DNA of 63,272 nucleotides, filler included, from Hausera hauseri (lineage: Eukaryota), in assembly GCA_046269625.1 (NCBI GenBank). It is 12 parts of 12 records of this genome, joined end to end, with 100 filler letters (N's around TTAATTAATTAA, not from the genome) between each part and the next. Parts side by side here need not be neighbours in the genome. Positions count along the whole stretch, not along the records: positions 20,783 to 25,673 come from JBJURY010401590.1; 11 more parts are not named here. One strand, given 5' to 3'. Below the pieces are notes generated by a model that was given only the letters and a program-made list of their open reading frames with translations, searched no databases and had not been told where the DNA came from. The first letter of the stretch is position 1. Every line of letters starts with the position of its first letter. Shown here in pieces: positions 7,058-50,218 of this stretch. A program made the position numbers and the translations under genes.

Positions 7058-9474
7058 GAGACGCGACTTCGGATGATGCGCCATTGCCTTCAGAAGGGGA
7101 GTCACGGTCGTTCGATCTTCTTAAGCGATCCAGTCTTCTTCGTAAACTGTTCTCTGAATCCGTTCGTAGAACAGTTTGTGGGCTTGTCTCCAGATGATAG
7201 TTAGTTTTAGGCCGGATTTCTACTACTTGGTTATTTTCCCCGTTTGAATAGTATTTCAACTATGTTTCTTCCGCTCGACACACTGGGCATGTGGTTTTCC
7301 CATTATCGAGGGTTTACGTCTCTATACAATCCCTACAATATTTGTATCGGCAGCCTTTGTTGGCCAATACAACAAAACCTTGCTTGAGATTAGCTTCGCA
7401 TATTGGACAGGTGTCTATTTCGTTCCCTTCAACGTGCAAATCCACATTTGTTATAGTTTCAATTCTTTCAAATACTAGACCTGTCCGATCTTGGTATAAA
7501 TAACCATACAGCTCCTTCTGATTTGGGTCTTTTGCGCTTTTTCTCGGGTCTATTTTTACGGGAAGAAGTGTCCACTCAACTATCTTTTGCTGGTCTAGAT
7601 TAGGAATACCATTGATTTGTGCTCTAATTTCAACTGGACTTTTAGCTGGGTATCTACGGGCACTGTCAGTCTTTTAGATCCGGTTTTGGGTTTGAAAATA
7701 GGGGCCAAGTATTTCCCTAATTTGGGATTCTCTTTAGCGCAAACGTTTCCATAAATTTCTCTTTGGGGTGAAACTCTTGCATAAGTTAGAGCTTCTTTAA
7801 TCCGACCATGACCAAAATACTCTGCCATTTTTGGTTTCGGATCCGTTTCCCTGGTCTCCATATTTTTTTATTCTGGGTTTTCCTGAAAAGATCGTTGCTC
7901 GTTTTTCAAGGACGTTTACGTCTTTGAGTTTGATGTCCATTTTGGGCTTCTTTCTTTTCTGCTCAATGAGGCCGAATAGCGAGGTCTTGGGTTCTTTTTC
8001 CGTTGGTCTCTTTGTACCGGTTTTCGGTTCTGGTGTTTTCGGTTTCTTGAATACATTTTGTTTAAGATTTTCTCGGGGATTTTGCTCCTATGTGACTTCG
8101 TTTTTTGAACTATTTGGGTTTTTGTTTCCGTTTTGCTTTGATTCGACCTCTTTGGTTCTGCTAGTAAATGGAAAATTGGAACCCCGCTGTTTGTTTGTGG
8201 AATGACTACTCTTGTCGGAGAATGTGCGTGATAATTTCGTCTGTGTTTGTGGCTTAGCTTCTCGAGGTTTGTAGTACTTTGAATATTTTGTTTATGGCTT
8301 TCGGATGACCATTCGAGGTCCCAACGCAATGATACATATATGTCGCGGAGATACTGTGTTTGTTGACTGGCATATAGAAGTTTGTGGATTTTAAAGTATC
8401 TCCCATTCATTGCTTCTAACATCAGTTTGAAACGTGCTTCTGCGGTTCTAGGTGGTAACAAGGAGTTATTCTTTCTCATTAATGTAAGATTCACTTGGTC
8501 TGTTACAGTGGAATGCCGCTCCATTTCGCGTATTCCGGTCAAGTATGTATTTTCGATACCTAGTTTTGCAATCATACACCGGACTCTATATTGGTTTAGG
8601 ACACATCCATAAATGCAGTGTTTCACTTCTTCCTTCATTACGTGGATGTCTTTTCCGTTCGTAAGGTCTTCTTTTGTTAGTCCTGTTAGATCGACAAAAG
8701 TTTCTCGTATTTTTTTCCTTGGAGCAATATTCCCAGAGATTTACTCGTTTCCACTCGGTTTTCTTATAGAAATTTCTATTGGGACGTTCCAACCATCCTC
8801 GTCCTCTTCATAGTTCATATCAATAATACGAACGTTCAGTCCATCTTGTACAAGCCGGTATGATTCTGACAACTGCTCAATATCTTCCTCTGAAGGTTGT
8901 TTGAATTGTCGTGTGGGTAAGATAACAAATGGGGTTTCTTGATGGGTGATTTTGTACATGAGTTTGATTGGAAGGGAGGCTGTCCGGAACTCCAACTCGT
9001 AGTTGATTAGGTTGTAACTGCACAAACTAAGAGTACTGAATCTCCATTGTTGTGCATTATTCACACTCCAAGACTGTCCGACGATTCTGTATTGGAGTTA
9101 CTCTTCTGCTAAATGTATAAATATCTGTTTATGATGTACCGTTTCAAAGTTTATCATTTTTCTTAAGACATTACACGGGCATCTGAATCGTTTTTCATAG
9201 CATGGAGCCGCATAACGCGACTTTCTTCGGTTGTTCCTTTCACTTTGTTGAATATTTTCTCTATTTGAGTATACTCTACATAGGTTTTATTTAGGAATTC
9301 GGTATTAATCTGTCTATATAGGGCTTTTGATGTTGGTGTAAGGATCGTTACATGTTTCTGGAAGAATTCATTGATTTTGTGTCTTTTCTGGGCTGTCTTG
9401 TGGTTCATCTTCGCCTTTTTGGCTATATTTACTGATCTAAAAAAGAAAAATAAGTTAATCCTAAAGCAGATCAT
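7038..9474 (-). pseudogene. Decayed accessory ORF(s) with C-terminal RING-HC finger (7278-7409)
   Basis: Manual translation CPICEANLKQGFVVLANKGCRYKYCRDCIET*TLDNGKTTCPVCR, in frame with ORF 7038-7259. Confidence 0.7.
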
Positions 9475-10700: not shown

Positions 10701-10949
10701 AAACTATCTGTATCTTTTTGCTTCGCGGCCTATTCTTTTTCAGCTATCTTTTGTATCCCACCCTTACGGATTCCATGGATGTCTTCTATTGAGGATTCAT
10801 TCAATATCCAATGTTGGATTTTTGCTCCAGGTATATGTGAGTCGATTAATGATAGTGCTAATATTATTTGTACGTATGATATCGGCCTGGCAATTATGGA
10901 AGAAGCTTCCTTTTTGCTTTTGCTTTTGGGTTTCGTTATGCGATCATAA

Positions 10950-11739: not shown

Positions 11740-11975
11740 NNNNNNNNNNNNNNNNNNNNNNNNNNNNNNNNNNNNNNNNNNNNTTAATTAATTAANNNNN
11801 NNNNNNNNNNNNNNNNNNNNNNNNNNNNNNNNNNNNNNNAATTTATCAATAGAAAACGTTGTTTGTTGTATGAAGCCAGGCAATAAAATTCATGTTAAGG
11901 ATAATGATCATCATGACGAAAATTGTACAAATTTATCGATCAATTACAATTCCAAATATGATCTGATATTTTTTA

Positions 11976-12290
11976 ATGTTTCAGAAATGGGAAGAAAGGC
12001 GAATGAGTGGAAAATTATGTTTCTTTAGCTCCGTCCTGTATTTTATAACGGTCTATTTAATATTGTTCACATATCCGAATATTATTTTTGCAATGTATTG
12101 TTTGGCATTTGTCGTCTTATTCATCATTCGGTTATATTCGTATACTAAATCGAATGATTTCTTATTTCTATTTGGCAATTGTTATTTTGCAAATCTCGCG
12201 TTGATTTTATATCTCTGGTTACGACAAGTACCAACGGATACCCTTATCTGTTCGATATTTGCTGTGGTTCATGTCCATTACAAATTGGAA
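11976..12290 (+). pseudogene. Fragment resembling glycerophosphocholine acyltransferase GPC1 (DUF2838)
   Basis: Hydrophobic segments with IIRLYSYTKSNDFLFLFGNCYFANL, resembling R...Y.....YFL.DFCYF.N. Confidence 0.55.
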
Positions 12291-12872
12291 TTGCTATTGG
12301 ACGTTTGTTTAAATGTGGCAATAAGGTTTTGACAAATTTTGTACAAACATGAAAATATATTGATTTGCAGTTAACTTTTGATTCCATATTGAAATTTTTA
12401 AATCAGTTTTATTTTCGAGTTATTTACAGATTTTAGTTTGCAAACGGAAACATCAAGTAATATTTATCTGGTCTATTTATTGCCGTAATTTTAAGTCATT
12501 ATAATCTGAATTTAATTATCTATCGGAATTTTGTCGTTTTCTCTTTTCACATTAGAATTTTATTCATATTTATCAGTCAGTGTTAATAACAAAATTGGTG
12601 TCAGAAAAATGACTTACCCAAAAACGTTTATATTTTCATCTAACGGTTTTAAAGCGTACATCTGTGCATATTCCGCCGAATTATTCAATGTTTTTACGAA
12701 AGATGCTCGATCGGACGATGAAATATTTTGCAAAGTGTTGGAGATTGTGTCACACAAAAGCCTTAGCGGTCTATTTTACAAAGACAAAAACCAAGTCTCA
12801 TATCAAATCAGCTCCAACAATCACATCCAGTTCATTACATCGGAATTAGTCGTGTTGTGCTTCAAAATTGAC

Positions 12873-13100
12873 AGTCGTGCTGCGATCAACTCACGAACGA
12901 ATGCAAAGCTGGGAATAAGCCCCCTGATGCCGGCTTTAATGAATGGCCATGTAGATGCGGTTTGCGTTCTGTTGGAGAAGAGGTCGGATATCAATTTACA
13001 AATTGAAACAAAGCGCAATACAGCTTTGACACTGGCATGTTTCCAGAGTCGTAGTAAGATTTTATCGATTTTATTTGAACGAGAAGCGTCTATCGAACAT
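12873..13100 (+). pseudogene. Two ankyrin repeats from MASK/ANKHD1/ANKRD17
   Basis: INSRTNAKLGISPLM.A.MNGHV.AV..LL...SDIN.QIET.RNTALTLACFQ closely matches the conserved MASK repeats. Confidence 0.88.
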
Positions 13101-13104
13101 CTCG

Positions 13105-14667
13105 AATCAAAGAGACTACTTGATGAAACAACTCGATATCGTGAAGATGTGAGAGAAGAATTAAAGGAAGACGTTCATGAGCTTGAGCAACGTAACGAAA
13201 TTCTTGCAATATTAGATCATATATTTGATCTTGACCTAAAAATAGATTCAGTATTTCAGCCGATTGAGTCGATGTACGCTCATTTGGAAAGATCTGAATT
13301 ACCGATCATGAGAACCGAGGCGGATGAACTCGGTAATCTTCGACAATATTGGAATGAATTGATTAAATGGCGGAAAGCCAAAGAAATCGTCTGCTTAATG
13401 AAAAGAGAAACGTATCCCATGAAGAACTTGAGAAACAGTTAAAGAAATTCACAGTTGAAGTGATACAATTTCGGAACTTTTTTGATTATGATTGCCCGAG
13501 TACGGCAAGATCAGATCCACTAGAAGTTGAACAAAGATGGGAGAATTTCCAAAAGCAGCATCACATTTTCGAGGAGAAACGAAACACACTGATTTCAATA
13601 AGCAAACTCTGATTTGAAAATTCAAAGTTTCTCCGAATTACATAGCATGAAAGAGGATTTGATGTTATTGACACAACTTTACAGCCTTTATCAAAATATT
13701 TCGAAATTTGAGAAAATTTTCAAAGAAACTCTGTGGAGTACAGTGGACTTAAGCACATTTCTTCTTAAGTTAACAGAATTCTGGGATGAATGTCTTACCT
13801 TGCCAAGTAAGTTAAAATAGAAAGAGTCATACGGTGAACTGAAGGGAAAAATTGATTACCTCATTAAAATTCATTCGTTTTTAATCAATTTGGAATTGAA
13901 GGAAATTCGAAACCATCATTGGCTTCGAATAATGAACATTACAAGTACAACATTTCAACTTGAGGCCGGAACTTTCACATGCTCAGACTTAACAGATATC
14001 AATTTATTAGAACACAAAAATGAAATTGAAAAAGTTTGCTATGACGCGCGTAAAGAGTTGGAACTTGAAATTAAGCTTCATCAAATTGAAGAAGAATGGA
14101 CAGAACAAGTACTTGTGTTTCAGAATCATCAAAGGCGCGGACCTGTAATTCTGGAAGTAAAATTTACACAAAGTTTGTTACAACAACTCGAGGACTCACA
14201 AATCACATTGACAAGCATGTTTAATTCTCGCCATATTGATCCAATGAAAGATGAAGCTGCTTTATGGGCAGCAAATTTGATGGAAATAAGTCAAGTATTG
14301 GAATTGTGGCTTGAAGTACAACGGTTGTGGCTGGACATAGATACCATTTTTGCAAGTCCCGTGATTGTGAAAATGCTATCAGAAACACAAAAGGTTTGAA
14401 CGTCTTGACAAAAGTTACGTAAAATCAATGAGACGAGTATTCGAAACCAAAAATGTTTTTCAGTATTGCATATCGAACGAATTCTCAAAAAGAAGTTTCT
14501 TGAAAAATATACAACAAGGATTGGAAAGTTGTTTTGATTCATTAAAAGGCTATCTTCAGACAAAAAGGGACTATCTTTCTCGATTGTGGCTTGTTCCAGA
14601 TATAACTATATTGTCAATATTAAACTGTTCCAGTGATTTAAGAAATCTTGAACAATACTTACCGTAA
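13105..14667 (+). pseudogene. Dynein heavy chain fragment (tail/DHC_N2 region, axonemal-like), intronless with stops and frameshifts
   Basis: IRNHHWLRIM, ARKELELEIKLHQIEEEW, LELWLEVQRLWLDIDTIF, SLKGYLQTKRDYLSRLWLVPD. Confidence 0.85.
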
Positions 14668-16627: not shown

Positions 16628-19600
16628 ATCCAAAAGAAGATTAGGTGTAAAAAGCTGCAAAAACTGAGATATCTGACAAAACACAAACCGTGTTAAATGT
16701 GAGTCAAAAACTGTAAAAAGAATATTGCAAATGCCGTCCTTAGTCCAAAATCTGCAGAACTGTGTCGACTAATGTCAAAAAAGCGCTGCATCAACCACGA
16801 GCAGGACACCTTGCTCTACACCTTGTGTTGGCTGTCTCTGTAAGCAGACCAGATCATACAGCATCAACACCTATTTGATGTCCCTATCAGCCACGTTGAC
16901 ACCTGTGAGAGCTACTAAGCTGCTGAGCTGAGCTGCTGCCAGAGCGTGTGAGATGCTGACAGAGCATGTCATGTGCTTTTNNNNNNNNNNCCCAGCTTTG
17001 AGCTCTGTCAGAGACTGTGAGCTGTTGTCAGTGTCTGTCACATCTGTTAGCTGCTGTCCCAGCCTTTGAGCTGCAGTCAGAGCCTGTGGGCTGCTGTCAG
17101 ATGTGTGAGATGCTGTCAGAGTCTGTCAGCTGCTGTGAGCTGTTTTCACAGCCTGTCAGCTACTGTCAGAGTCTGTGAGCGGCTTTCACAGCCTGTAAGA
17201 TGCTGTCAGAGCCTGTCAGCTACTGTCAGAGTCAGTGAGCGGCTTTCTCACCTGTGAGCTGCTGTCAGAGCTTGTGAGCTACACAAGAGTCAGCAGACAG
17301 CGTCTATGAGCTGCTTTAAGATGCTGTCAGCTGCTGTCAGCTGCTGTCAGCTGCAGTCGTAGTCAATGAGTTAGTACTAGAGCCTGTGAGCTGCTCTCAG
17401 AGACTGTGAGTTGCTGTGAGCTGCTTTCAGAGCCTGTGAGCTTCTGTCAGAGACTGCGAGATGCTGTCAGAGCCTGTCAGCTACTTTCAGAGTCTGTGAG
17501 CGGCTTTCACAGCCTGTGAGCTGCTGTCAGAGCTTGTGAGCTACACTAAGAGTCAGCAGACAGCGTCTGACAAGCTGTTGAAACAGCTTGTCAGATGCTG
17601 TTGGAGTCTATGAGCTGCTACCAGAGCCTGTGAGCTGCTCTTAGAGTCTGTGAGTTTCTGTCAGATCCTTTGAGCTGCTTTCATCTGCTGTCATGTGAGC
17701 TCATGTCACATCCAGTCAGCTGCTGTCACAGTCTTTGAGCTGCATTCAGACCCTGTGAGCTGCTTTAAGCTACTGTCATAGCTTGTGATCTCGTGACAAA
17801 GCATTTTAGCTGCTTTCACAGCCTTTAATCTGCAGTCAGATCCTGTGAGTTGCTACCAGAGCCTGTGATTTGCTCTCAGAGTCTTTGAGTTGCTGTCATC
17901 TGCTATCAGAGCCTGTGAACCTCTGTCATAGCCTGTGAGCGGCTTTCATAGACGTCAGCTATGAAATAGTCTGTGCATAGTCTGTGAACTGCTGTCCGAG
18001 TCTGTGACCTCCTCTTAGCAGCTGTCAGAGCCTGTTAGCTGCTGTCAGATCCTTTAAGTTGAAATTATTTGCAGTCATGTGAGCTCCTTTCCTAGCCTGT
18101 GAGCTGTTGTCAGAGTCTTTGAACTGCTTTTAGCTTTTGTCATAGCCTGTGAGCTCCTGTAAAAAGCCTGTTAGCTGCTGTCACAGCCTTTTAGCTTCAG
18201 TTAAACCCTATGAGCTGCTACCAGAGCCTGTGAGCTGTTGTCAGACTCTGTGTCCTGCAGTCAGAAAGAGCGAGTTGTCAGCTGCTGTAAGAGTTTGTGA
18301 ACTGCCTTCAGAGGCTGTGAGACTCCTCATCCAAAAGAAGATTAGGTGCAAAAAGCTGCAAAAACAAAGAGATATATGACAAAACACAAACCGTGTTAAA
18401 AGTGAGTCAAAAATTGTAAAAAGAAAATTGCAAATGCCGTCCATTGTCCAAAATCTGCAGAACTGTGTCAAAACCCTGTAGAAGCAAGAATATTGCCATT
18501 AATGTCCGCATTGTTGTGACACAGACACAAAAACACGAGAAAGGACATCCAAATAGCAATAAAAGTGAAACTGAGGCAAAATGGTTCAAGCCAATGTAAA
18601 AATATTGCCAAACGCTAGAAAAACAAGCAAATCGCAAATCAATATTAAAAAGCACAGGAACCGGCTAAAAAATCATGAAAAGTGCCGACTAATGACAAAA
18701 AAGCGCTGCATCAACCACGAGCAGGACACAATCCACAGATCAGCCTATTCAACCCTGATTGGATGGCTGGTTTTGCAGCCCAGTTACATACCTAAGCAGC
18801 CTCACCTCCAAGATGGACCCTATGCGGCCTCTCCACATTTTGGCTAGTTGGCTCCACAGCCCAGTCACCTCTATGAAGCTCTACACCTTGTGTTGGCTGT
18901 CTCTGCAAGCAGACCAGATCATACAGCATCAACACCTCTTTGATGTCCCTATCAGCCACGTTGACACCTGTGAGAGCTACTGAGCTGCTGAGCTGAGCTG
19001 CTGCCAGAGCGTGTGAGATGCTGACAGAGCATGTCATGTGCTTTTAGGTCCTGTAAACTGCTACCAGAGCCAGTGAGCTGCTGCCAGAGTCTGTGTGCTG
19101 CAGACAGCGTCTATGAGCTGTCAGCAGCTTTCAGCTGCAGGCGTAGTCAATGAGTGACTACTAGAACCTGTGAGCTGCTCTCAGAGTCTGTGAGTTGCTG
19201 TCAGCTGCTTTCAGAGCCTGTGAGCTTTTGTCAGAGCCTGCGAGATGTTTCCATTGCCTGTCAGCTGCTGTCAGATTCAGTGAGCTGCTGTCAGAGGCTT
19301 TAAGCTGCTGTCAAAGCGTGTGCTCCTGTCAGAGCGTTTGAGCGGCAGTCAGAGCCTGTGAGCTGTTGTTACTATTCTATGAGCTGCTATCACACTTTGC
19401 GAGCTGATGTCTGTCAGCTATGGTCAGCTGCTGTCAGAGAATGTGAGCTGTTGTCAGTGTCTGTCACAGCTGTTAGCTGCTGTCCCAGCTTTGAGCTGCA
19501 GTCAGAGCCTGTGGGCTGCTGTCAGAGCGTGTGAGATGCTGTCAGAGCCTGTCAGCTGCTGTGAGCTGTTTTCACAGCCTGTCAGCTACTGTCAGAGCCT

Positions 19601-20682
19601 GTGAGCTGCTTTCACAGCCTGTAAGATGCTGTCAGAGCCTGTCAGCTACTGTCAGAGTCTGTGAGCGGCTCTCACAGCCTGTGAGCTGCTGTCAGAGCTT
19701 GTGAGCTACACAAGAGTCAGCAGACTGCGTCTATGAGCTGCTGTAAGATGCTGTCAGCTGCTGTCAGCGGCTGTCAGCTGCAGTCGTAGTCAATGAGTTA
19801 GAACTAGAGCCTGTGAACTGCTCTCAGAGTCTGTGAGTTGCTGTGAGCTGCTTTCAGAGCCTGTGAGCTTTGTCAGAGCCTGCGAGATGCTGTCAGAGCC
19901 TGTCAGCTACTGTCAGAGTCTGTGAGCGGCATTCACAGCCTGTAAGATGCTGTCAGAGCTTGTGAGCTACACTGAGTCAGCAGACAGCGTCTGTGAGCTG
20001 TTGAAACAGCTTGTCGGAGTCATTGAGCTGCTACCAGAGCCTGTGAGCTGCTCTCAGAGTCTGTGAGTTTCTGTGAGCTGCTGTCAAATCCTTTGAGCTG
20101 CTATCATCTGCTGTCATGTGAGCTCATGTCACATCCTATCAGCTGCTGTCACAGTCTTTGAGCTGCATTCAGACCCTGTGAGCTGCTTTTAGCTACTGTC
20201 ATAGCTTGTGATCTCGTGACAAACCTTTTTAGCTGCTTTCACAGGCTTTAATCTGCAGTCAGATCCTGTGAGTTGCTACCAGAGCCTGTGAGCTGCTCTC
20301 AGAGTCTGTGAGTTGCTGTCATCTGCTGTCAGATCCTTTGAGTTGATTTCATTTGCAGTCATGTGAGTTCATGTCACATCCTGTCAGCTGCTGTCACAGT
20401 CTTTGAGCTGAATTCAGAACCTGTGAGATGCTGTCAGTGCCTATCCGCTTGTGTCGGAGCCTGTGAGCAGCAGACAGCGTCTGTGAGCTGTGGAAACAGC
20501 ATGTCAGCTGCTGTCGGAGCCTATGAGCTCCATTCACAGCTTGTTAGCTGTTGTCACAGGCTTTAAGCAGCAGTTAGATCATGAGCGCTGCTGCAAGAGC
20601 CTGTGAGCTTCTGTCAGGTTCAGTGAGCAGCTGTCAGAGGCTTTAAGATGCTGTCATAGCGTGTGCTCCTATCTGAGCGTTT
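16628..20682. repeat. Complex satellite: CTGT(G/C)AG-based 10/20-bp subunits within a multi-kb higher-order repeat
   Basis: Very many ctgtgagctg/ctgtcagagc variants; the unique block atccaaaagaagattaggtg occurs at 16628 and 18329. Confidence 0.92.
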
Positions 20683-20782: not shown

Positions 20783-22500
20783 AACGAATGCAATGGAGAG
20801 GCTACTGTTGATATTCTTTAATAAATTTTCGATAATATCCTATAAGACTGAGAAACTTTAGAACTCCCTTAACTAGTTTCGGGACTGAAAAATCTTGTAT
20901 TTTATTTATTTTCCCAATCTGAGGACTAATGCCTTTTCTGCTTACATTATGTCCTAAAAAATCAACCTTGTTTCTAACAAAACAACATTTCTTGAAACTG
21001 ATTTTATGCCAAGAAGAGCACACCTCTCTAACATATCTTTGAGGTGTTCTTTATGTTGTTAATAGTCACTGTAAGCGATTATGACATCATCTACGTAACA
21101 CATTATTTGAAATGTTGCCGGAGAATTTTTCATTCCAAATGCCATTCGGTTAAATTCGTAATGCCCATTTGCGGTCACGAAAGCTGTTTTTTGTTTACCT
21201 TCTTCCTGTACGTCTATCTGCCAAAAACCTTTTTTTATAGATCTAACGTGATAAATAACATTTTATCTTCCAATTTATCCAATAATTCGTCAATTCTAGG
21301 TAGTGGATAGGTATTGTCTATTGTTACCTCGTTAAGAGCACGGTAATCCACACACATTCTGATAGATCCATCTTCTTTCTGCACCATTACAGTTGAAACT
21401 GCCAATGGAGAATTACTGTGTCTCATTATATCATGTTTTCTCATTTCAGCTATTATTTTTTTTGCTTTTTATCTTTTATCGTAATTGAGCCGATATGGCC
21501 TCTTCTTAATAGGGGTTTCCATCCCGGCTTTTAATTTAATTTCATGTTTAATAACGGGGATTATACACATATCATATTCGTCAATGGCGAAGGTATCTTT
21601 GTATTGTTGTAATGTTTTGATTATTCCTTCTTTTTCGGAATCTGTCAATGTGCTGTCTTTACCCAACAAATCATAATCATTCCAATTAATGGGGGTCTTG
21701 ACAAATGTTGTCATTCTTTTATTTTTGTTAAGATGACCTTTTAGTTTATTCATTGGTTCTGTTTCGAATCGTATTCCAAATTCTGTTTGGGGTTTTTGTT
21801 GTTGTTTTTCTATAAATTCATATAACTCTTGTACGGTGGAAATAATGGCCACTGTTGCTTTATTGCCTATATCTTTTATGATGTATACATAGGCAATTCT
21901 CATGCCTTTTCTTAATAGTTTGTTTGAAACATGGGCTATTCGAACGATTACTTGTTGTTCTCGAATGTTCTCGATTGTATGAGCTAGCCATAGCTCATTC
22001 TTGTCCATGAACGTTATATGTGGTTCAATATAAACGTCTCCTTCATCTCGACCTTCTACTAAAGTTTTGAGCACAATCGCCGTTCTGGCTGGTATTAGCA
22101 CGTCTTCCATAATGGCCACTGTATCCTTTTTCTCATTCTTTGTTTTTCGATATGGTTGGATTTGTTGAGTTTCCATGTGTATACACATATCTTTTAATTT
22201 TGCTAACGCGTCACACCCGAGTATAGCTTCAGCCACCAATTCATCAGCTATTCTGAATTCCTTTTCAAATTTTTGGTTTAGAACTTTTGTCTCACATTTA
22301 ATCAGATCTTTCACTTGTACTCTTGTTCCGAATGCTCCAACATTCGTAATGTCCTCTTTGGGTTTTTGTAACATTTTCTTCAGTTGTTCTGGAAGTTGTT
22401 TGCGTGAGATCATTGAGGCTGATGCTCCTGTGTCAGTTATGGCTGTGATAGGATATCCGTCTATCCAAATTACTGTTCTCGGAATTACTTTACCGCCATC
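20783..22500 (-). pseudogene. Aspartic protease and reverse transcriptase
   Basis: AITDTGASASMI, AILGCDAL, PIKKRPYRL, KEDGSIRMCVDYRALN, YPLPRIDELL, CYVDDV at about 21083-21100, KVDFLGH. Confidence 0.93.
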
Positions 22501-22849
22501 TATGCTGGTTATCAAAACTTCGTTAGGAGCTAATGGATAAAATGTGAGTTTCATATATTTTGGCTCACAGTTATCTATATCGCTAGAACAATGTATATCT
22601 ATATATTCATTAGGGGATATGAAACGTTGTTGTTCCATTGGATACTTATTCCATTTTCTGATTTGGAGAATATCCGAAAGTAGAGTTCTCCGTTTCTTAC
22701 TTCGAGCAGTGATTAAACTCCATGTTTTCTTAGTACGATCAAACGACTGATGTCCTGTTTCTTTTCTCTTCTTTACTGGAGGCTCATCGTCTTCATCATT
22801 GGTGTCGTTTCTGTTTCTATTCTTCTGGTTCCATTCTACATCCTTCTTT

Positions 22850-24685
22850 GTTAGGAAACAGCTAGCAATTGACGGAATTAAGGCGCATATGATTTTCCAG
22901 GTACATCCAGCAGTTTGTTTTATGCCATAACCTTTTGTTATCATTGCCAGGATTACTTTTATAAATGCAAAAATATAATAAAATCCTAACCATCCCGAAT
23001 TAAATTGACCAAACCACATGTACCATCCTCAGGCAGTAGTAAATATATCCTTAGCAATTTTCTTTGCATAGCCAGGTCTTATCAAATTTTCCCAGTTAAC
23101 TTTCTCCGTATGATCAGCTAGCACTTTTATTGCCATCTCCGTTAAAACTTTCTGTTTTTGTTGATGAAACATCATCATCCTTTTATGATTTTCCATATCT
23201 TGCTCATAATATACGCCCGTCTTTACTAAATCTGTTAGTGGTTTATACGTTTGTTCCATTTTTAAATTAATTAGACTAATTCACCGAGGTGGAGTAATCT
23301 GCTCTTTTTTCAGCATCATTATACACAAGTTGTCGCTTAGTCGAAATTCTGGCGACATAGTATATGTACAATTTTGATGTACGTAGGGTTTTTCTGTCGG
23401 ATCCAATAGTATCCTTGTAATTGGTTGAAGGAAACGTGGTTTTTCTTTGTACCAGACAGGTAACACCATTGTACATTCACTGGTTGGTCTAAGTTTAACG
23501 GATACTCTAGTACATTCGAATCTTACAAGAGTTTCACCCATTGTTTGTGCAAATTTCCCTTCTGCATCAGGTGATTCGGCTGGATGTTTTATTATTCCGT
23601 CCGTTATCGCCGACAGATATTCTGTTTTTGATTATGTCGCGATTAAATTTATAATCTTTCAAGATTATTTCTCGATACATTGTGTAAATATTTTCCTGTT
23701 TGAAGTGATAGATGAAGTCTATTTTATTGTCAAAATACAGATGCGGTTTTACTTCCGATTTATCAATCTGTCTTTTAGCTTCTTCAATTCTTGTTGTCGA
23801 CAGGAATATTCCTTTGTAGTTTGTTCGGTATAACGTTTCATCACATCTCTTAGTATCGCCTTCTAATTTAAATCACATCCCTTCTGTCGGATCTGCTGAG
23901 TATACTATAGGTGGTGTATCAATTGTGTCTGATACTCGAAATATTTGACTTTTGGATATTTCTTTGTATATCTGTCCTCTAGTCTCGTTAAACTTTCCAA
24001 CCTTTAATAATACCAAATGGCATCGATCTCTGTTAACTTCGTATGACATGATTGATTCACCCGTATCACATTCTTTATTATAATTGTCACATTCGGGAAA
24101 TATCATCATTTTTCCAGACGATATTTCGAAGAGTGCGTCGTATTCCCTTAACTTAACTTGATAGTCTTCAATAACTGTCACATTATCCAGTATTTCATTG
24201 TTTATGTTATATGACTCACTTTTACAGTATCCTGTTTTATCGATTGAACCGGCTACAAAAATTCTTTTATTAATAATTTTTTCTTTTGGAGCCCTTAACC
24301 GAATGTTTCCAATATTGATCTGTTTTGTAACAAATGCTTCTAGGCACATCCGTTTACTTATTGGAAGTGGCTCAAACGTAGTAGTTGGTTCTATTATAGC
24401 TGAGTTCCTGTACCAGTAGCCACAAATAAAATAAAAATGATTTCTTCGGACAAAACATTCTTTTACTTTTGTCTTTACAAATTCTGATTCCTGATAAACA
24501 TAATATTCTTTTTCTGGTAATGTAATAGTGACGTTGGATTAGCAAATGGATATTTTTCTAAGTACAGTAAAGAATATATTGGACCGTCCTTAGCTTGGTT
24601 GCAATCATGTGCAATAATGGAAAGTGTTTTTGGCATAAAACTAACATAAGGAGTATGAGTATAACCTTAATTAGCCATGATAGAT
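22850..24685 (-). pseudogene. Envelope glycoprotein, chuvirus-like / class III (gB-like) fusogen
   Basis: Signal peptide WLIKVILILLML, then SIIAHDCNQAKDGPIYSLL; GETLVRFECTRVSVKLRPTSECTMVLPVWYKEKPRFLQPITRIL; C-terminal hydrophobic region WFGQFNSGWLGFYYIF...GYGIKQTAGCTW. Confidence 0.75.
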
Positions 24686-25257
24686 TTTGTTGTCTCTCTG
24701 GTTGTTGAGGTGGGAAATGTTTTGTCTGTCGATGCGTGACTGGTACGGATTTGTGTATTGTCGTCTGAATTAAACTAGTAATCCATCCACCTCTACATTT
24801 TACCCATCCGTCGACGTCAGCCTTTAACGCTCTAGTAGCAATTTCTATATTTCTCTCTATCTCTTCTTGGTTTGGATTAATTCCATTTATCACTATTATT
24901 TTATACAAGAGACAGGATATTGCTGTTACAATTTTATTTCGAGATATGCCAGTTCCAATCATTCTGGACAGTATGTTTCTTTCGTGGATTTCATTTATCC
25001 TCTCATTTGTAGGAATGTCTGCAAATTGTTCACTAATCTTTTTGATCTAATTCCTGATGCATTGAATTAGTGAATCTGGTATTTGTAAGTTTGTGTTAAA
25101 TTCAACAAAAGCATTACGCATTCGTGTTAACAAGGTTGGCAATAATGTTGTCAACGATACATTATCTACATCATATTCATCTTCTGTTGTTAGCAATCTC
25201 AGAAGAATTTCATCATCTCTGGCTTTCCTGCCTTTCAGTTGATAAAGTTTCGTTGTT

Positions 25258-25658
25258 CCTTTTGGTCTGCCACGATTTCTCTTATTCGTTTGGATTTGTT
25301 CTGATATAGGAATATTTATTTCAGCTTCTACTTGTTGAGCCTGATTCAGATGTTCAGCTTCTTGTATTTTTTGCCTAACGTCAGTGATGATTTCATCAAT
25401 TATCTCTTGTTCGGATTGTCTATAAGTAATGCACACAATGTTGTATCGGTTCTCCCAGATACCTACTTCATATAAAGTTTCATAATCCATCAGCGTTCGT
25501 CCGTAGAAGCGTAACTCTAATTTTCCTTGAGGCTGGTTTATTTCATTAATTCTGTTTCTTAATACAATTATCATATATAGCAACTTCATTCTTAGAACAT
25601 GAAAGTCGTGGTTATACTGTTGGAATGTAACCATTATTTCCGTGTTTTCTCCAACCAT
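25258..25658 (-). CDS. Ubiquitin-like domain followed by an AT-hook
   Basis: LELRFYGRTLMDYETLYEVGIWENRYNIVCITYR parallels ubiquitin [40 protein letters not shown] follows. Confidence 0.55.
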
Positions 25659-25899
25659 TCTTACCCTATCGGCNNNNNNNNNNNNNNNNNNNNNNNNNNN
25701 NNNNNNNNNNNNNNNNNTTAATTAATTAANNNNNNNNNNNNNNNNNNNNNNNNNNNNNNNNNNNNNNNNNNNNATTATTGTGTAATCAAATTTTGAATAT
25801 TCGATTTGGGAAATTGAAAATCGAAATACAGTGTTGCGACGAAATTATTGTGTAATTACTAAAATTAGAATTTGGAATTTTGAAATAAAGGAATCCAAA

Positions 25900-37639: not shown

Positions 37640-39612
37640 TTTATCCTGATTTAGTAGCTGGTAGTTTACTGTAGCAAATTGAAAATTTTGCTGAAATGGG
37701 TAGTGGGTGGAAGGTGGTTAAGATATTAAAGTACTCTTTTCATGTAGTAAATCAAGCACACTACCCTATTTGTCGGGTAAGTCCTATATTTCAACACCTG
37801 GTACTTTAAAAAAATGAAAAGGCTGTTATTAGTGTTCAAAATTAGGACCCTGTGATTCTTATACTCCATTCTTGCAATTGCTAAGTATTTCCTCTTTAAA
37901 GGTTCGGGTAAAAAGTCAGTTACTGTTAAATTTCTGGACACTTTGCAGCTTTTACCCGCTTCGCTCAAAACATTAGCATCGAACTTAGATAGCTATCCAT
38001 TGACAGAAGCGGCTTTTCCTTCGGACATTATTAAAGGAAAAGGTATATTTCCTTACACCGCTGCAAAATTTTCAGCGACTTGCAGTCCATTTCTGCATTA
38101 CCATGAAAATGGGGTGGTGTGAATGATACAGATTATGACGAAGCACAACTGGTTTGGCCAAGATATAGTTGCAGCTCGCTTTTGGATTATATGTTTATAC
38201 ATATGAAACTTTATGTTTTCTTGTTAGGTGATGTTTTCGAACCGTTTGGAAAGGAAGTTAAGTTGAACGATGGATTAAAATACGTTAATTTCGTCTCTAT
38301 TTCTGGTTTATCTTGGGCAACGCACTGAAAACCAGTCCATATCGAATAGAACTTATTCAGGACCCTCAGATGTACAATTTCTTTCAAACTGGTATATAAA
38401 TGTAAATAATTTGTACGACTCGGCTTTATCACAACTACTGCCATTTGCGAATTTAACATGGATATATGATGAGGACAAATTAACTAGCCTGATTGAACAA
38501 TTTCCTTTCATTGACTATGTTAGGGGAAAACGAGGCTTAGTATTTGAGGTGGATTTAAGCATTCCGGTTGACAAAGATGATGAGTTTGAAGAATTGTCTC
38601 TAGCACCAATTAACAAATGTCATCCTAGTTCAAAAGTTAAAAAATTGCTGCTTACACATGAGCGTAAGTCCAACTATGTTGTTCACTATCGGCTCTTACA
38701 GTTTTACATCGAGTTAGGCGCTAGAGTTTGAAAGGTACATCGGGATGTTGAGCTTGACCAGGGATATGTTTTTAAGGATTACATACGTAAATACTGCTAA
38801 GAGGGCTGCAGCAAATACTCTTTTTGAAAAAGACTTTTTAAGCTTAAGAACAATAGCTTATACGGCAAAACTGTTGAAAATCTTCTGAATAGATCCAACC
38901 TGAGACTGTACAATAACGCTAAAGAGCTAGTTACATATGCTAATAAGGCCCTGTTTAAAGATAGCATCATTATAGCCGATGATCTGGCTGCCGTTTTCCT
39001 TAATAAAGACATGGTCACATTAGATAAGCCCTCATACATCGGTCAGGACGTACTTGATCTATCCAAGTTACGGATGTATGAGCTGCATTATATCGACTTG
39101 GAGACATATAGGCACCAGTTACACTATGAACTTAATATTGTTGTTGTTGATACAAGCGGCTTCTTCCTTAAATGCCGTGGTGTTGACTTAAAATCACAAT
39201 TCTTACCGGAAATGATAGCAAACGAGAAGTTAGATACGTTAAACTATGACAAGAGTGATCCGCTGTACTCGACTGGTTTCGCAACTGTAATTGGGAACTT
39301 TAAAGACGAGATCAAGGGCAGCGCCTAGCATCAAAAGGCGATTTTCCTACGGCCGAAATCCTATGCCCTCAATACCGAAATTAAACCAGTCCTCAAACGT
39401 GACGGCATAAATCTCAAGCAGACAGATTTATACTTTGACAGCTACCTACAGGCTTATGAAACCGGTGGAAGCACCCTGGTGGATCACGAGGGAATTGGAA
39501 ATCCATCAGCTTATGACAATCAGCTCAAAAATGAAAGCATTGGATCGGTTCGACGACAAACGCCAGCGGATTGACAAGAACAAAAGTGTTGCATATGGAT
39601 ATTATTGTATAA
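37640..39612 (+). pseudogene. Polinton/Maverick-type protein-primed DNA polymerase B, decayed and internally deleted
   Basis: GSGW, FLDTLQLLPASL, KGIFPY, FEVDL, KKLLLT, KLKNNSLYGKTVEN, LDLSKLRMY, RPKSY, FDDKR. Confidence 0.9.
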
Positions 39613-40756
39613 ATGTGTGATTACATTTGGTGCCAATAAATATTTCATTCTTTACCGTGTTTATTTTATTAATAAGGTTTTCTTAATCAGGGTAAATACG
39701 TTTCATTTACACTGTTTTCGTATTGAGAACATTTACAACATACAAAGGTTAACATTTATTATCGAACATATTTTGATAAAAATACTACAACTGCACCAGT
39801 AAGAATACTACACACAAGTAAAACANNNNNNNNNNNNNNNNNNNNNNNNNNNNNNNNNNNNNNNNNNNNTTAATTAATTAANNNNNNNNNNNNNNNNNNN
39901 NNNNNNNNNNNNNNNNNNNNNNNNNACAGGGCAGTTTCCGGTCGACAGTCAACTTGCGCTCAATGTCCAATACATCACAACCGGAAGCTACACTATTAGA
40001 GTATTGGCGTATAATAGCATTGAAAGTACCATGGAAAACGGTAGTTACTGCGTCTCGTGTTAATTGCAACCTGCCAGTCACAACTACAAACGATAACAGT
40101 ATCTACATTCAATGAAGCTTATTTTTTCAATTATCTCTAAATGCCAATAAAAGATAGATTCATCACAGATCTCTTCATCAATCAAAGTATTATCATTCAG
40201 ACCAGGTCATTCGCACTCAGTAGATAAAAATTCCATTTACACAGAAAATCCAAATAAGGAAGATTGATCTCTAGACGCCTGCTTTTAGGCTGCTTTTGCA
40301 AATTCACCGACTTCAATGGATGTACTGTGTTTAGAATAATTTGTATTCTTTTCTTTTGCAAAAAGTGCATTTTATTACTTTTCAGTTGTTCTGGATTGAC
40401 ACCAACTTAATGCACATTACTCTTTTTGTGACGTAATTTGTTATGTCATCAGTTAATGTCAATGGTTATTTTTTGCAAGTATGTTGTCGAAAAATGGTTT
40501 GTTTAAAATAACCAAAAAAAGGAGGATTGAGAAGTACGGTTTTTGAATTCGGCTTTTAGCCGTAGTGAATAAAATCGTTGTGTCCCTGTTGAATTCAATT
40601 TCTTGCAGTTTGCCATTTTGGACTTTTATCGTCATTTTGACTTCATTTTATTTTGTATTCTCTTGTTGTCGATCATTGGATATAACTCAATTTCCAAATT
40701 GGTGTCAGATTATACCAGTACAAAACAGTCAATTTTCTTTCCAAACTGACGTTAGA

Positions 40757-41940
40757 ATGCACAATAAATTCTGGTCAAATCGTAAAAGTACCAATGAGAA
40801 ATCCATTCATTCTCTAAAAACAAGAAATCGACATGATGACGAAAATTTTAAGAGTTCCGTGAATAATTGCAACGAAAAGCCTGACAAGACTTTTACCGTA
40901 TTTTCCAAACTTCGATCTTCGTTTTCTAAAGCAAATTCGTTTGATTCAGATTTTTTACAGAAAAAACCAAACATATTTCCGAAAGAATTGGATAATTGTG
41001 ATCGTCATTATGGGGAAAAGGGTCTGATATCATTGAAAATGATTTTCTCCAAATCTTTGAACATATCGTCGACAAGAATGAGACGTTCCAATGATGACCA
41101 AGATCGTGAAACCGGCGATGTTGTTAGCCATTTGTCTGTGAAAAGTGACGAAGACGATCGAGATTGGCATTATTCATTGCATCCCATGAACAGTAACAAA
41201 GCGGAAATTACACCGAAGGATATCGCGAACAATGGCAACACATGTTATATCAATTTCATCATCCAATGCTTGAATTCAGTTGATCAACTTGCGAAATATT
41301 TTCTTCTCGACGAATTCGTTGACGATAGCAAATCCTCGAAGAATTCAGATACTATGAATTTGATGTTGTTAACGAAATTCTTTATGTTTCTCAAATGTCT
41401 CTGGTTGTTAGAACTCGATTGTTATTCGTTATCCAATGATTTCCGTTTTTAATTGCCAAATACCGAACGCAGTTTTCAAAGCAATGATCAACAGGACGCC
41501 CAAGAGTTTCTGTTGTTTCTACTCAACCATTGCCACGAACGTTTGAAAGTCTGTGTCGTTTTGGAACCGAAGAAAGTCAAGAAACCGAGAAAGAACATTC
41601 TCTATTTCGAAGCGCAGAAAATCGTCAACCTGAACAAATCCCGAATTTATTCGATTTTCGCCACATATCAACAGTTGGTTATTGTCTGTCCGATTTGTCG
41701 TACTCGAAAGAACAAATTGGAACCGAATATTTGCCTTAGTCTTCCAGTTCCGGCTAAAACAATGGAGCCGTTGTATTATTGTTTTGTTGAAAAGGACGGA
41801 TCACAAATATTCGCAGAGATATGGATAAACACTGTCAGCCCTGTACAGTTTGTTCGTGCAAATATCGCTCACAAATTCAGAATTAATGTCGATAACACCA
41901 TGATCATGGTCGTCACTGAATCAGGATTCGGGAAATGTTC
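40757..41940 (+). pseudogene. Ubiquitin-specific protease (USP) N-terminal half, no His box
   Basis: Cys box NNGNTCYINFIIQCL, QQDAQEFLLFLL, CPIC...EP..CLSLPVP; in-frame stop at 41450-41452. Confidence 0.88.
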
Positions 41941-42327
41941 TCAGGGTTCTGGCACGTCTATCGAATTGCTGTCTGCGGAAAACACAGTCCACGACAAGCA
42001 ACATATGGAATGGTGTAGTCGCCCTTAAGACATCATACGTAAACAATAATTCATTCCGTCAAGAAACCGATCCAGACTCTGATCAGTGCGCATCAGATGA
42101 AAAATAGTAATTTGCCATTGAGTAGAATTACTTTCGATCACACCAATGACATACGTCGTCGAAATGAACATTATGATAATTTGTCTTTAAATGAGGAAAA
42201 GTGTACATATACTTTATTGGACGGTATAGAAACACGATGTTGTCAGTCGATTAATGCATCTGTTAATAAAAACCAGTCAAACACCGACGACGAATCGTCC
42301 GAAAGTCAACTGAAGCTCGTCGCTATT

Positions 42328-43285
42328 CGCGTTGAAGAACTTGTCGATGTGTTAAAACTTCAAGATCGCCAATATCTGGGCATTAAAGCTTGCGCACTCA
42401 GAACTCTAACGGCCATAATTCATAGCGGCATACACACGTCTTGCTGGTCTGTGTTAAAAAACATGACGAGAGTAAACTCATATCACGGGAATTTTCCGAC
42501 GATGATGCGCGATTGGATTGGCGATTTGGTTCAAGGCAAATTCTATCCATTTGCTGGCACCATCGAACAACACTTTACAACAGCGATTTTACCATTTCTT
42601 TATCCTTTGGCTTGTACGAATGAAGTCAGTTCTAGCCAAGGGAATCTAGTTGGAACCGGATTACTACATTCCTTGGAGGAAATCATAATAGGGCGCACTG
42701 TTGAAACAGATTACATTAGTTTTGCAACTAGAGCAGTTCGACTTATTGATCAAATACTCTTGTCCTTTCAGATCAACAGCAACACAACTAGTCAAAAGAG
42801 CATAATTCATGCCTTGGTGAACAGATTAAAATTCGATGTAAACATCTATTTAAATTTTGATGTTGGTGAAATCACAATGAAACATCTGGCAATCAACACA
42901 CAACGCGTTGGATTCATCAAAAACATGTTAAATTTGACAAAACGTTTAATCCTCGATAACAAATGGACGGATACGTCACACACTACGATGGAATATGAAT
43001 TGCCAGACATAATACGGCAAAATTTCATGAACTATACTAAATTCAATCCGCAATTGTGCCTGTTCTCAATGGAAGTCATCACGAATTTCGAATACAATCA
43101 GCCGTCAAGCATGTCCACAATGCAGGATCGACATCTTACTCGAGATATTCTTCCCGTTTTAACGGAACAACCTCTTTCAGTTAACCGGGATTTCTTTGTG
43201 GCATTGCCAACGTTGTTGACTGCCTTGTCTACAAATAGGCGGGGTATCAACGAAACAAAGGAGACCAATATCGTCGTCAATATCA
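42328..43285 (+). pseudogene. HUWE1-like HECT E3 N-terminal ARM region, internal fragment
   Basis: VEELVDVLKLQDRQYLGIKACALRTLTAIIH, NSYHGNFP, FATRAVRLID, QPSSMSTMQD, LPTLLTALSTNRRG. Confidence 0.85.
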
Positions 43286-43587
43286 ATCAGACCTGTTTGA
43301 TTATCATTTCCGTTATTGCATCGGAACTGACAGATTCATATAAAGGTAATACAATAATTGTTGCAATATATATTAAGTGCCATATGGACATTTTGATCAA
43401 ATTTGCCTACAAAAATTAATCTGTTTATTCCCCGCTGTTGAAATCATTTGTAACCATGCTCGGTGAAGCCCAGCAACTTGACTTTCGAACTTAAGACCAT
43501 CCTGAACAGCCAGAGGAGTCATCGGTCACCCCTAAATTTGGTACCAGCCGCGGTGAGGCTGACGTTCCGGCCGCCCACCCTGCGCCA

Positions 43588-44937
43588 TTGGGTCAGACGG
43601 CGCCTTTCGCTTTAGCTCCACAACACGCCCCGGGCACACCACTTCTTATTTCTTTCTTTTTTCTCAACAACAAACACATTAACACACATACAGCAACACA
43701 TTTAAACTCTGTTGCCATCCATGAAATCATCTCCACTTCTCTTCTCTCCTCTGATTTCTACCTTACACACGACGGATCTCTAGTACTCTTTGCTGGAACT
43801 CTACAATCTTCCTCAACCCACATCTGTTTTCATAATCATTTCCGTATCCGTGGTGGCATGGATTTGTCACCCACAATTGACACCGCGGATAAACTCACTA
43901 AACAACAGATCCCCATCATTCATTTACCCAAACACAGCGCTTCCAACATCTCTACACAACATACCCTCCTCACTCATTCACCCTGCACAGAATATTTTCT
44001 CGATAGCCAAAACTCTACTCAAACTTGGCTAAAACTGCACCAATTTTGGCTCCAATCTCAAAACGTCGTCGACTGGTTAGCCAAGGCCAACAGCCTCTTT
44101 TTCCACTTACCAGCCTCCATGAAAATTAAAATCACCAATATAATCGATATCCTTCAGCACGCTGACCCATATACCCAACTCTATAATGCCGTTCTCAAGC
44201 TTACTGAGCCCTCAATCGATTCAATCATTCAAATGTTCTTTAATGACAACGCCATGGGCCTTCAGAAACCTTCTGAATTCCTACGCACATCCTTGTCTCA
44301 CCTTAACACCCTTGGAGTAATCTCTGAACACAGTCCTGAACTCCTTTGTAGCTATTTCTTAAATGCATTGCCCCTTCAAATAAGAGCTTTGCTAACTGTG
44401 TTTGAGGACTCCACGGCTCTTGACAAGCTAGCCGAACTGGCAGACAAGGCATACGAAGTACGGCACTCACATGCAGCGCCAACTATTTCTGCAACCTTGA
44501 CAACAGATCAACAGCAACAAAATACAATGCTGCAGCAACAAATTGCGCAATTGCGCGCAGAAAATAAAACATTACAAAAAACATTCAACCACATTAACGA
44601 CAAAATAAACGCATTAACACTACCTCGACGGAGTTTTTCTAGGCCTGCTTCCCCTAATGCATTTAATCAACGTCAAAGACGGTGGCCTTCGCCCGCGCGG
44701 TCATTAATTTGCTATTATCATAGCAAATTTGGCAACAATGCCCAGAAATGCTGCATCGGTTGTAAATTTCATTCCCCTAATTTCAATACATGCAACATCA
44801 TTTGCATATCCCACTCAAAATTTGGCGCAAAAGCACAAAAATGCCTATCTGGCTGTACCTATAGCACACACAATAAGACCCACACTAATAAGTTCACACA
44901 AAACAGTAGACCAAACTCACCAGCTCCAAAAAACTAA
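43588..44937 (+). CDS. gag: UBL-Gag: ubiquitin-like leader ending RIRGG (to 43857), then Gag from Met 43858 with two CHCC fingers
   Basis: DPYTQLYNAVL, MGLQKPSEFL, FLNALP, LAELADK, CYYHSKFGNNAQKCCIGC and CISHSKFGAKAQKCLSGC. Confidence 0.85.
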   Translation: MGQTAPFALAPQHAPGTPLLISFFFLNNKHINTHTATHLNSVAIHEIISTSLLSSDFYLTHDGSLVLFAGTLQSSSTHICFHNHFRIRGGMDLSPTIDTADKLTKQQIPIIHLPKHSASNISTQHTLLTHSPCTEYFLDSQNSTQTWLKLHQFWLQSQNVVDWLAKANSLFFHLPASMKIKITNIIDILQHADPYTQLYNAVLKLTEPSIDSIIQMFFNDNAMGLQKPSEFLRTSLSHLNTLGVISEHSPELLCSYFLNALPLQIRALLTVFEDSTALDKLAELADKAYEVRHSHAAPTISATLTTDQQQQNTMLQQQIAQLRAENKTLQKTFNHINDKINALTLPRRSFSRPASPNAFNQRQRRWPSPARSLICYYHSKFGNNAQKCCIGCKFHSPNFNTCNIICISHSKFGAKAQKCLSGCTYSTHNKTHTNKFTQNSRPNSPAPKN

Positions 44938-46296: not shown

Positions 46297-46342
46297 CATA
46301 TTGTGAGAATCTGTTACTATCAAGTACCAAATAAATGCTCAT
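45120..46342 (-). pseudogene. Polinton minor capsid (penton-like) protein, decayed
   Basis: MSIYLVLDSNRFSQYD(N)nTS*HFTMALDQPPNL...AWEVALPEF and INILTDLTKPVYVG; lies directly after integrase. Confidence 0.65.
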
Positions 46343-47290
46343 TACTCAATCTGCGATGCAAATATCCAACTCGGTATAGTGTATCCATGCCTCTTGATGA
46401 GAAATTGTTTATTAGAACCTTTGCTACGTAAACGTAGAATTTCCTTAATACGATACACATCATGTTTTTCCGGTAGTACTTGCAGTTCCTGTTCGTAAAA
46501 TTTGCCACGTATTTCGTCACCATTTTCATCTTCTAAAACGTACGTAACAGGCGTTTGTTTTGTGTTGATTGCTGAGATTCGGAAAACTCCATCGTTCCAG
46601 TTCTGATTTAAATTCTTAATGAATGGTGTCGTACTCAGTTTCAAAATACGTAAATAATCACCGATTTTATACTTGGTACGTTTAATTAGTCGTCGTTATG
46701 TTCGTTTTTGATAAAGCCACATGTCCAAATCATCGGTTACATCAACTGGTTGTAATCCATTGATGCCCCCGTGTGTCGAATGGTTGTATGTATGAATAAT
46801 ATCTGGTAGTACATCTACCCAGTGTTTACTGCCCTGCTTGGTAAAGAATGTGTTCATTCGGCTGCGCAGGGTTCGATTAAATCATTTAAAGAGAGCAGCC
46901 TTGTATTACGAAAATACAGATTAGTGGTTTATACCGAACTTGTTCAAGACCGATGCGACATGTGAGATGTAGAATTCTTTACCTAAATCCGTTTGTAAAT
47001 GCTTCGGTGGGGGTTGTTGTTGGTTTATTAATGTGTGAACAGCGTCGACAATCTCTTTACCGGATTTAGATTTCACGGCAATTGCACATGCAAAACAACT
47101 AAACACATCAATACACGTAAGCACGTACCGATACCCATCGTTAATGCTCTTTTACGGAATCATTTCGATCAGATCCATTTGTCATACATTATTTACGCCT
47201 GTATCACGGTATGCACGAGTTAGAAACCGTTTCCTTCTCCGTTTGTCGACTCCAATATAACCAATGGGATGATGCGGATCAAACCACATG
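46342..47290 (-). pseudogene. Polinton retroviral-like integrase with C-terminal chromo-like segment
   Basis: LTCIDVFS, HLQTDLGKEF, FNRTL, WNDGVFRI, TYVLEDENGDEIRGKFYEQEL, FLIKRHGY..SWI. Confidence 0.9.
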
Positions 47291-49695: not shown

Positions 49696-50218
49696 CTATA
49701 AGTTTANNNNNNNNNNNNNNNNNNNNNNNNNNNNNNNNNNNNNNNNNNNNTTAATTAATTAANNNNNNNNNNNNNNNNNNNNNNNNNNNNNNNNNNNNNN
49801 NNNNNNCGTACCAAAGGGAAATCGAGGGTGCAGTTCATATGTGTATTGCACATGTGTAATACACAACCCTCAGAATTGCCACAATTACATTAGGAGCTAT
49901 TATGGACACAAATTGAATAGGATCATCTATTATAACTGCCCAGGATGTGAGGCTGTATGTGATGGAGAATACATGCAGTTTTAAGAAGATCACAAATATC
50001 ACTTGAATGACTTCATATTAAAATCAAAAAAGGTCATATTTAATGAGCAGCATCGTGTTTTAGCAGCGCAGCCTGTTTTGGCAGCACAGCCACTTCTACA
50101 ATTTAATTTAGCAGCAAGGCCCGATGCAGGACTAAAGCGCATATCAGAAGTAGAAGCAGACGCTCTGTGAAAAAGCCAAAGACATCGTCCAGTTGATGTA
50201 GCTGCACTGAAGAGCAAA

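Follow-up and report, generated by a model that had tools for sequence, protein, structure and literature searches.

The contig at positions 20783-25673 very probably carries the central portion of a Ty3/gypsy LTR element that is decayed and Burro-like, and whose single gag-accessory-env-pol open reading frame (ORF) would be processed across the ER membrane as proposed below. The window, the whole stretch of 63,272 nucleotides from Hausera hauseri that was analysed, consists of 12 contigs joined by 11 N-spacers, and the sequence beyond the spacers is not contiguous with this contig. All that is described of the element here comes from this one contig of 4891 bases, read on the minus strand. 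It is a decayed member of a known layout, likened to Burro by the published description and not by sequence comparison.

A decayed frame joining env, protease and reverse transcriptase

The whole contig is a single decayed coding unit on the minus strand, with the following features.

25419..25673, minus: N-terminal alpha/beta region of the segment ahead of env (X), truncated by the contig edge; resembles ubiquitin/SUMO by eye and in its Burro position only
25257..25280, minus: short basic RGRP motif, from sequence
24774..25076, minus: helical domain, Bcl-2-like from concordant sub-cut-off matches, with a BH2-like W-V-x3-GGW motif at its end
24633..24689, minus: hydrophobic internal env signal sequence (KD 2.12), aligning with the pre-env segment of P0016 and P0136
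24535..24636, minus: predicted mature env start, lying in another frame (A-H-D-C, corresponding to AYDC in relatives), from tblastn of P0005, P0016, P0053 and P0004
23609..24538, minus: N-half of the env ectodomain (the fusion, PH-like and central-helix regions of a predicted class III fusogen), Pfam Monjiviricetes_fusion E 2.4e-15
22996..23631, minus: env ectodomain C-half, Pfam Monjiviricetes_fusion E 2.7e-44
22939-22995 (in 22852..22995), minus: env membrane anchor (KD 1.87; 1.79-2.54 in 14 relatives)
22852-22908, minus: second, less hydrophobic Cys-bearing segment (KD 1.60; 0.37-1.71 in 14 relatives)
22483..22851, minus: charged linker, putatively on the cytosolic side, from sequence
22192..22482, minus: retropepsin with DTG at 22426-22434, Pfam RVP E 4.9e-10, FIV protease E 0.007
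21832..22164, minus: spacer between protease (PR) and reverse transcriptase (RT), at the position of Burro's dUTPase-like domain, homologous to other pol spacers (best E 3e-9)
20793..21573, minus: broken Ty3/gypsy RT, truncated by the contig edge, from PDB match, tblastn and stop census

The sequence-only reading had confined the element to 21235..24685; that interval does lie within the unit, but the unit reaches both contig edges, 25673 and 20793. The homology-supported path through this copy meets seven internal stops and one more at the contig end, and changes frame five times (near 24635, 24535, 23620, 21238 and 21005), and the copy yields no whole protein. No gag, LTR or integrase was found on the contig, which is internal to the element.

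The junction between env and pol is open in this copy. A stop-to-stop frame at 21469-23028 (minus strand, 519 aa, with an ATG at 23019) runs uninterrupted through the glycoprotein anchor, the charged linker, the protease and some 35 residues at the start of the region that matches Ty3 RT; at the local base composition, the chance of no stop across 519 codons is ~5e-19. Moreover, positions 23541, 23280, 23019, 21471 and 21237 all fall in one frame, and from 23631 to 21235 that frame holds only 4 stops in 799 codons, versus ~62 expected, confirming the earlier claim that the ORFs from 23541 to 21235 share a frame. In tblastn, a single alignment (789 columns, 29%) spans 23571-21238 with P0004, a natural protein of 2627 aa. 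The open frame and this alignment bear out the placement of env upstream of, and in frame with, protease-RT. The further claim that the ORF at 21469-23019 leads from env into the protease and the start of RT also stands, with most of the RT lying beyond the stop at 21469-21471.

The proposed order X-env-PR-RT is found in many divergent relatives, but in this copy X and the N-half of env occupy other frames; the continuity of X with env is therefore evident only in the relatives. Single stops interrupt the Bcl-2-like domain (25047-25049) and the env N-half (23873-23875), and two interrupt the env C-half (23281-23283 and 23029-23031). The RT contains stops at 21469, 21235, 21059 and 20802, and its frame shifts twice, near 21238 and near 21005.

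The RT is closest to Ty3/gypsy: its best PDB match is Ty3 RT 4ol8 (E 4.5e-19), and the next non-Ty3 entry follows at E 7.7e-6. The order PR-RT is present on the contig, and the full order PR-RT-RH-IN in P0004, P0005, P0040 and P0113. For the spacer between protease and RT, no dUTPase match was found in Pfam or among the 60 of 264 PDB matches listed.

The glycoprotein and its membrane topology

The two halves of the ectodomain match model positions 61-354 (N-half) and 366-640 (C-half) of the 653 in Monjiviricetes_fusion (PF24664). A model of the N-half, folded along with 13 relatives and with an X placed at the stop, was predicted with pLDDT 83.8. Among solved structures, Foldseek matched it best to gB of herpesviruses and GP64 of baculoviruses (E from 1.8e-6), and VIA-align ranked HSV gB first (Z 9.8, rmsd 5.3, 253 aligned), with class III fusogens or domains thereof in all 12 top rows. 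Among predicted viral structures, chuvirus-like glycoproteins lead (E ~4e-18, TM up to 0.74). The suggested comparison with class III fusogens thus puts gB, GP64 and chuvirus-like glycoproteins on top, and both Pfam and structure matches relate the ectodomain to viral fusogens; on the predicted model, the env ectodomain of the element is a class III fusogen. Two short proteins, P0009 and P0037, are 75% and 84% identical to this env and, judged by sequence identity, are closer copies of this env family in public data.

Each relative has a hydrophobic segment right before the AYDC-type motif and one strong anchor closing env. A candidate signal-peptidase site is located two residues ahead of the motif. 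In the element copy this predicted cleavage site has T and S at -3/-1, and in the relatives small residues occupy -3 and -1 in 10 of 11 (background 0.115); the site had been chosen by eye before the count was made. The second hydrophobic segment is most hydrophobic in P0054 (KD 1.71), which counts against a single-anchor topology. The distance from anchor to DTG is 187 aa here and 126-386 aa in 12 relatives.

A topology with Gag in the cytosol, Env in the lumen and Pol in the cytosol would be coherent, because of the internal signal sequence and the fit of the relatives to a signal-peptidase site. The sequence-only reading had supposed that such a polyprotein needs signal peptidase and re-entry to the cytosol, and this is compatible with the hydropathy and the -3/-1 pattern. 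Alphavirus and flavivirus polyproteins consist of a cytosolic capsid, an internal signal, a lumenal envelope protein, an anchor and a cytosolic remainder. The element resembles them in this arrangement, whereas their proteins, class II fusogens without RT, are unrelated to its own.

We propose that, in a working copy, translation would begin in the cytosol with Gag and then the Bcl-2-like domain. The internal signal would then take the env ectodomain into the ER, where signal peptidase would cut the signal; the env anchor would halt transfer, and Pol would be made on the cytosolic side. Cuts by the element's protease would separate the Pol enzymes from the tail of env, and Gag from the signal anchor. 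Gag and Pol would initially be tethered to the membrane that holds Env, which may favour the budding of enveloped particles. What is observed is the identity, order and frame of the domains, their conservation among relatives, the hydrophobic segments and the -3/-1 pattern; the topology, cleavage, particle formation and any anti-apoptotic role are inferred for such a copy.

Relatives, published elements and rival explanations

From the full HMMER scan, the best 150 of 37,845 matches were taken; the query was itself env-PR-RT, so the match list favours fused forms. Among these best 150 of 37,845, 19 proteins bear env (17 of them scanned with Pfam). Twelve of the 19 run on into protease in one protein, six reach RT and four extend across RNase H as far as integrase. 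Another five are short pieces with env alone. P0053 and P0136 end 34-37 residues past the env anchor. Gag markers precede env in P0017 (zf-CCHC, E 7e-6), P0054 (Retrotrans_gag, E 1.7e-4) and P0040 (zf-CCHC, E 0.003; Ty3_capsid, E 0.02). Identity in the env N-half among 13 env-bearing relatives is 22-61% (78 pairs, median 32), and the fusion is common to at least 12 clusters less than 50% identical, most of their polyproteins being much shorter than Burro's. In each of the env-fused proteins P0005, P0016 and P0017, the retropepsin-like unit is repeated three or four times.

A quick RT tree (103 rows, 150 columns) left out 49 of the 150 matches, which have no 110-aa RT stretch. In this tree the RT of the element and all five env-fused RTs form one 13-row group (SH-aLRT 95). 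The remaining seven rows of the group begin at or after the protease region and therefore cannot show env; across the tree, the env label was not significantly clustered compared with shuffles (41 of 500 as low). Word-index searches were blank for the env region (long proteins) and for X, and they carry no weight because they missed HMMER relatives of 35% identity.

The domain directly before the env signal is weakly indicated to be Bcl-2-like, on evidence that stays under threshold in each of the tests. Its Pfam Bcl-2 scores (E 0.12 and 0.057) lie under the curated cut-offs; it is homologous to residues 24-153 of P0016 (blastp E 6e-10), and the relative P0053 matches Pfam Bcl-2 at E 9.6e-4. 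A five-sequence profile (A2) searched against PDB returned Bcl-xL in its top 14 rows (E 0.1-0.17), and the BH2-like motif occurs here and in 3 of 14 relatives. The X sequence itself had no match in PDB. The predicted X model is poor (pLDDT 39); Foldseek placed the Bcl-2 family in its top rows at E 0.057 and weaker, and in VIA-align Bcl-2 chains rank 32nd and lower (Z 4.8), behind unrelated helical bundles.

The first 85 residues of X have no Pfam match and are ubiquitin-like by eye only. The best local match of this N-terminal region to a relative is at E 0.47 (P0136), with model pLDDT of about 35-55; no ubiquitin-like match was found in Pfam, PDB sequences, the relatives or VIA-align with this low-confidence model. 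The RGRP motif at 25257..25280, which we take to be AT-hook-like, is present as [RP]GRP in 3 of 14 env-bearing relatives.

The element follows a published layout. According to the accessible part of PMC6431247 (Arkhipova and Yushenova 2019), planarian Burro polyproteins read BCL2-env-PR-dUTPase-like-RT, and Burro was the first case of an in-frame env between gag and pol. Its ORF1 comprises gag, a Ubi2/SUMO-like domain, BCL-2, env, PR, a dUTPase-like domain and RT-RH-IN; its env matches mononegavirus glycoproteins, and decayed copies with stops and frameshifts were described (PMC6431247). The element resembles Burro (GYPSM1) in having a BCL2-like domain, env, PR, spacer and RT in that order in one ORF. 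It has env in frame with protease and pol, and this env is related to mononegavirus-type fusion glycoproteins; the BCL2-like domain directly before env is weakly indicated, from sub-threshold lines and P0016 homology. Other parts of the published Burro, which exceeds 30 kb with a ~4900-aa ORF, MATH, BIR, ankyrin and Smc domains, LTRs and a gag with CCHC knuckles (PMC6431247), would fall outside our contig. The accessible text on Burro env gives neither a class III label nor signal peptides, whereas both are indicated in this element. The architecture, put forward as unusual by the sequence-only reading, had therefore already been published.

The available part of PMC13524379 (Chary and Hayashi 2026) describes gypsy elements of gB-type GAG-ENV-POL layout from nematodes, flatworms and bryozoans (nine from flatworms and ten from bryozoans; six in Schmidtea), with an env ectodomain bounded by a signal peptide and a TM or by two TMs. 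Our element is like these errantiviruses in being Ty3/gypsy with a gB-type, class III env ectodomain before pol. The available main text of PMC13524379, figures aside, contains none of the terms 'Burro', 'Bcl', 'fused', 'polyprotein', 'in-frame' and 'same ORF'; the Burro and GAG-ENV-POL literatures, between which no cross-citation was seen in the accessible text, probably describe one architecture. As 114 arthropod gypsy elements carry a chuvirus-like glycoprotein according to the same source, the earlier view that such glycoproteins were captured mainly in BEL/Pao does not hold.

Size is the point on which a related reading differs. The element may be an ordinary-size gB-type GAG-ENV-POL gypsy element, not a giant Burro, with the same processing and a different family label only. 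The closest full relatives among the best 150 of 37,845 matches (2146-3243 aa versus ~4900), most of which have no BH2-like motif, and the nine flatworm and ten bryozoan elements of PMC13524379 agree with this, but the Bcl-2-like domain indicated directly before env is a Burro hallmark in the accessible text of PMC6431247, and we regard an ordinary-size element as somewhat unlikely. Quite unlikely, in our judgment, is a real single frame in which Env comes from a spliced or separate message and the full polyprotein bypasses the ER. One ORF forces Gag:Env:Pol near 1:1:1, which is unlike retroviruses, and P0053 and P0136 stop soon after env, both in favour of a separate Env message. Also in its favour, Cer1 yields a spliced product from a single-ORF genome, in the accessible part of PMC10309623. 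Against it, the conserved internal signal and single strong anchor would leave Gag and Pol cytosolic, and splicing is therefore needless. We rejected Cer1 as a counterpart of the element, since its extra ORF lies 3' of pol and is not env-like (PMC10309623, in part).

The fragmented assembly, the decayed copy and the reading of relatives as database proteins would allow a one-off junction, in which deletion or mis-assembly had brought together env and pol from two different elements, or fusions made by gene predictors. An open genomic frame spans the junction here, however, 12 divergent clusters continue env into protease at the same junction, the env-fused RTs group together, and the Burro layout was published independently (PMC6431247, accessible part); we consider a one-off rearrangement very improbable. 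Hardly credible is a BEL/Pao element like Anakin, which carries the same glycoprotein family (PMC7642597, in the part available) and shares its chuvirus-like env with our element but belongs to another retroelement superfamily. The RT here is Ty3-like, and the relatives match gypsy-type RT_RNaseH, Integrase_H2C2 and Ty3_capsid/Retrotrans_gag; a BEL/Pao-type pol was not found in the element or in these Pfam domains of the relatives. A Burro-like Ty3/gypsy element with a single gag-accessory-env-pol frame thus remains our preferred explanation.

Membrane segments beyond integrase

Several relatives (P0004, P0005, P0013, P0018, P0093 and P0113) have a signal-like segment and an ectodomain past integrase in the same ORF, most with a further anchor. 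All six members of the RT clade that extend at least 300 aa beyond the integrase core have hydrophobic segments there; such segments also occur in 3 of 12 non-clade tails. The motif C-x2-L-x-[PYE]-D-x2-Y, which is FN3-like, is found in four of the six tails, and the Atlas look-alikes of the tails are FN3 (score 0.90, 151-159 shared features; a lead only). Similarity between tails is weak (best pairwise E 0.0035), and their profile gave no match to the contig at 6756-11739 (E 2.5 or worse) or to other HMMER matches. An FN3 module in LTR elements did not appear in our literature search, and 'fibronectin' is absent from the available text of PMC6431247 and PMC13524379, figures aside; this FN3-like membrane module may be new.

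The contig at 6756-11739 (minus strand) has a broken integrase whose three best matches (P0004, P0093 and P0013; 43 queries matching) are clade members, followed by hydrophobic segments at 10900 and 9699, 1.2 kb apart. Possibly a related element has its 3' part here. Two further ORFs on this contig resemble RNase_T (7916-8740, E 0.0017) and RING (7314-7673, E 0.003).

Elsewhere in the window, a second, distant gypsy element lies at 55964-62542 (plus strand), with no env seen. Between its integrase parts (59463-59828 and 62312-62542) are ANTH (60623-61132) and Wntless-like (61313-61876) pieces, possibly captured host sequence; the ANTH piece has 4 matches among 74 candidates, of which the two named are from Schistosoma (48%), weakly hinting at a flatworm as host. 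Long, broken USP and DUF913 (HUWE1-like) pieces at 40547-44937 (plus strand) stand immediately ahead of a gag-like ORF, and pieces of DUF2838, ankyrin and dynein heavy chain lie inside 2.5 kb at 11967-14399 (plus strand) as mosaic-like gene fragments. Broken ORFs at 38279-39328, 46342-46695 and 50171-53181 resemble Polinton DNA polymerase B and integrase by eye; at E 0.01, Pfam matched none of the five Polinton-like pieces that were scanned. Satellite arrays of 10/20-base and 22-base units occupy 17000-20600 and 30190 to at least 34430.

Taken together, the contig repeats a published layout with a dead fragment and as such has little significance. With an internal signal and a single anchor, the in-frame env, a predicted class III fusogen, would make the polyprotein topology workable. 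A more speculative and rather unlikely extension is that Burro is the giant member of a broad single-ORF gag-env-pol metavirus clade with a two-part entry machine. Ahead of the protease would lie a class III fusogen, and after integrase an FN3-like type I membrane attachment protein, so that the polyprotein would pass through the ER membrane four times. If the post-integrase module is indeed an attachment protein, these elements would be true retrovirus-like particles whose entry system no retrovirus shares.
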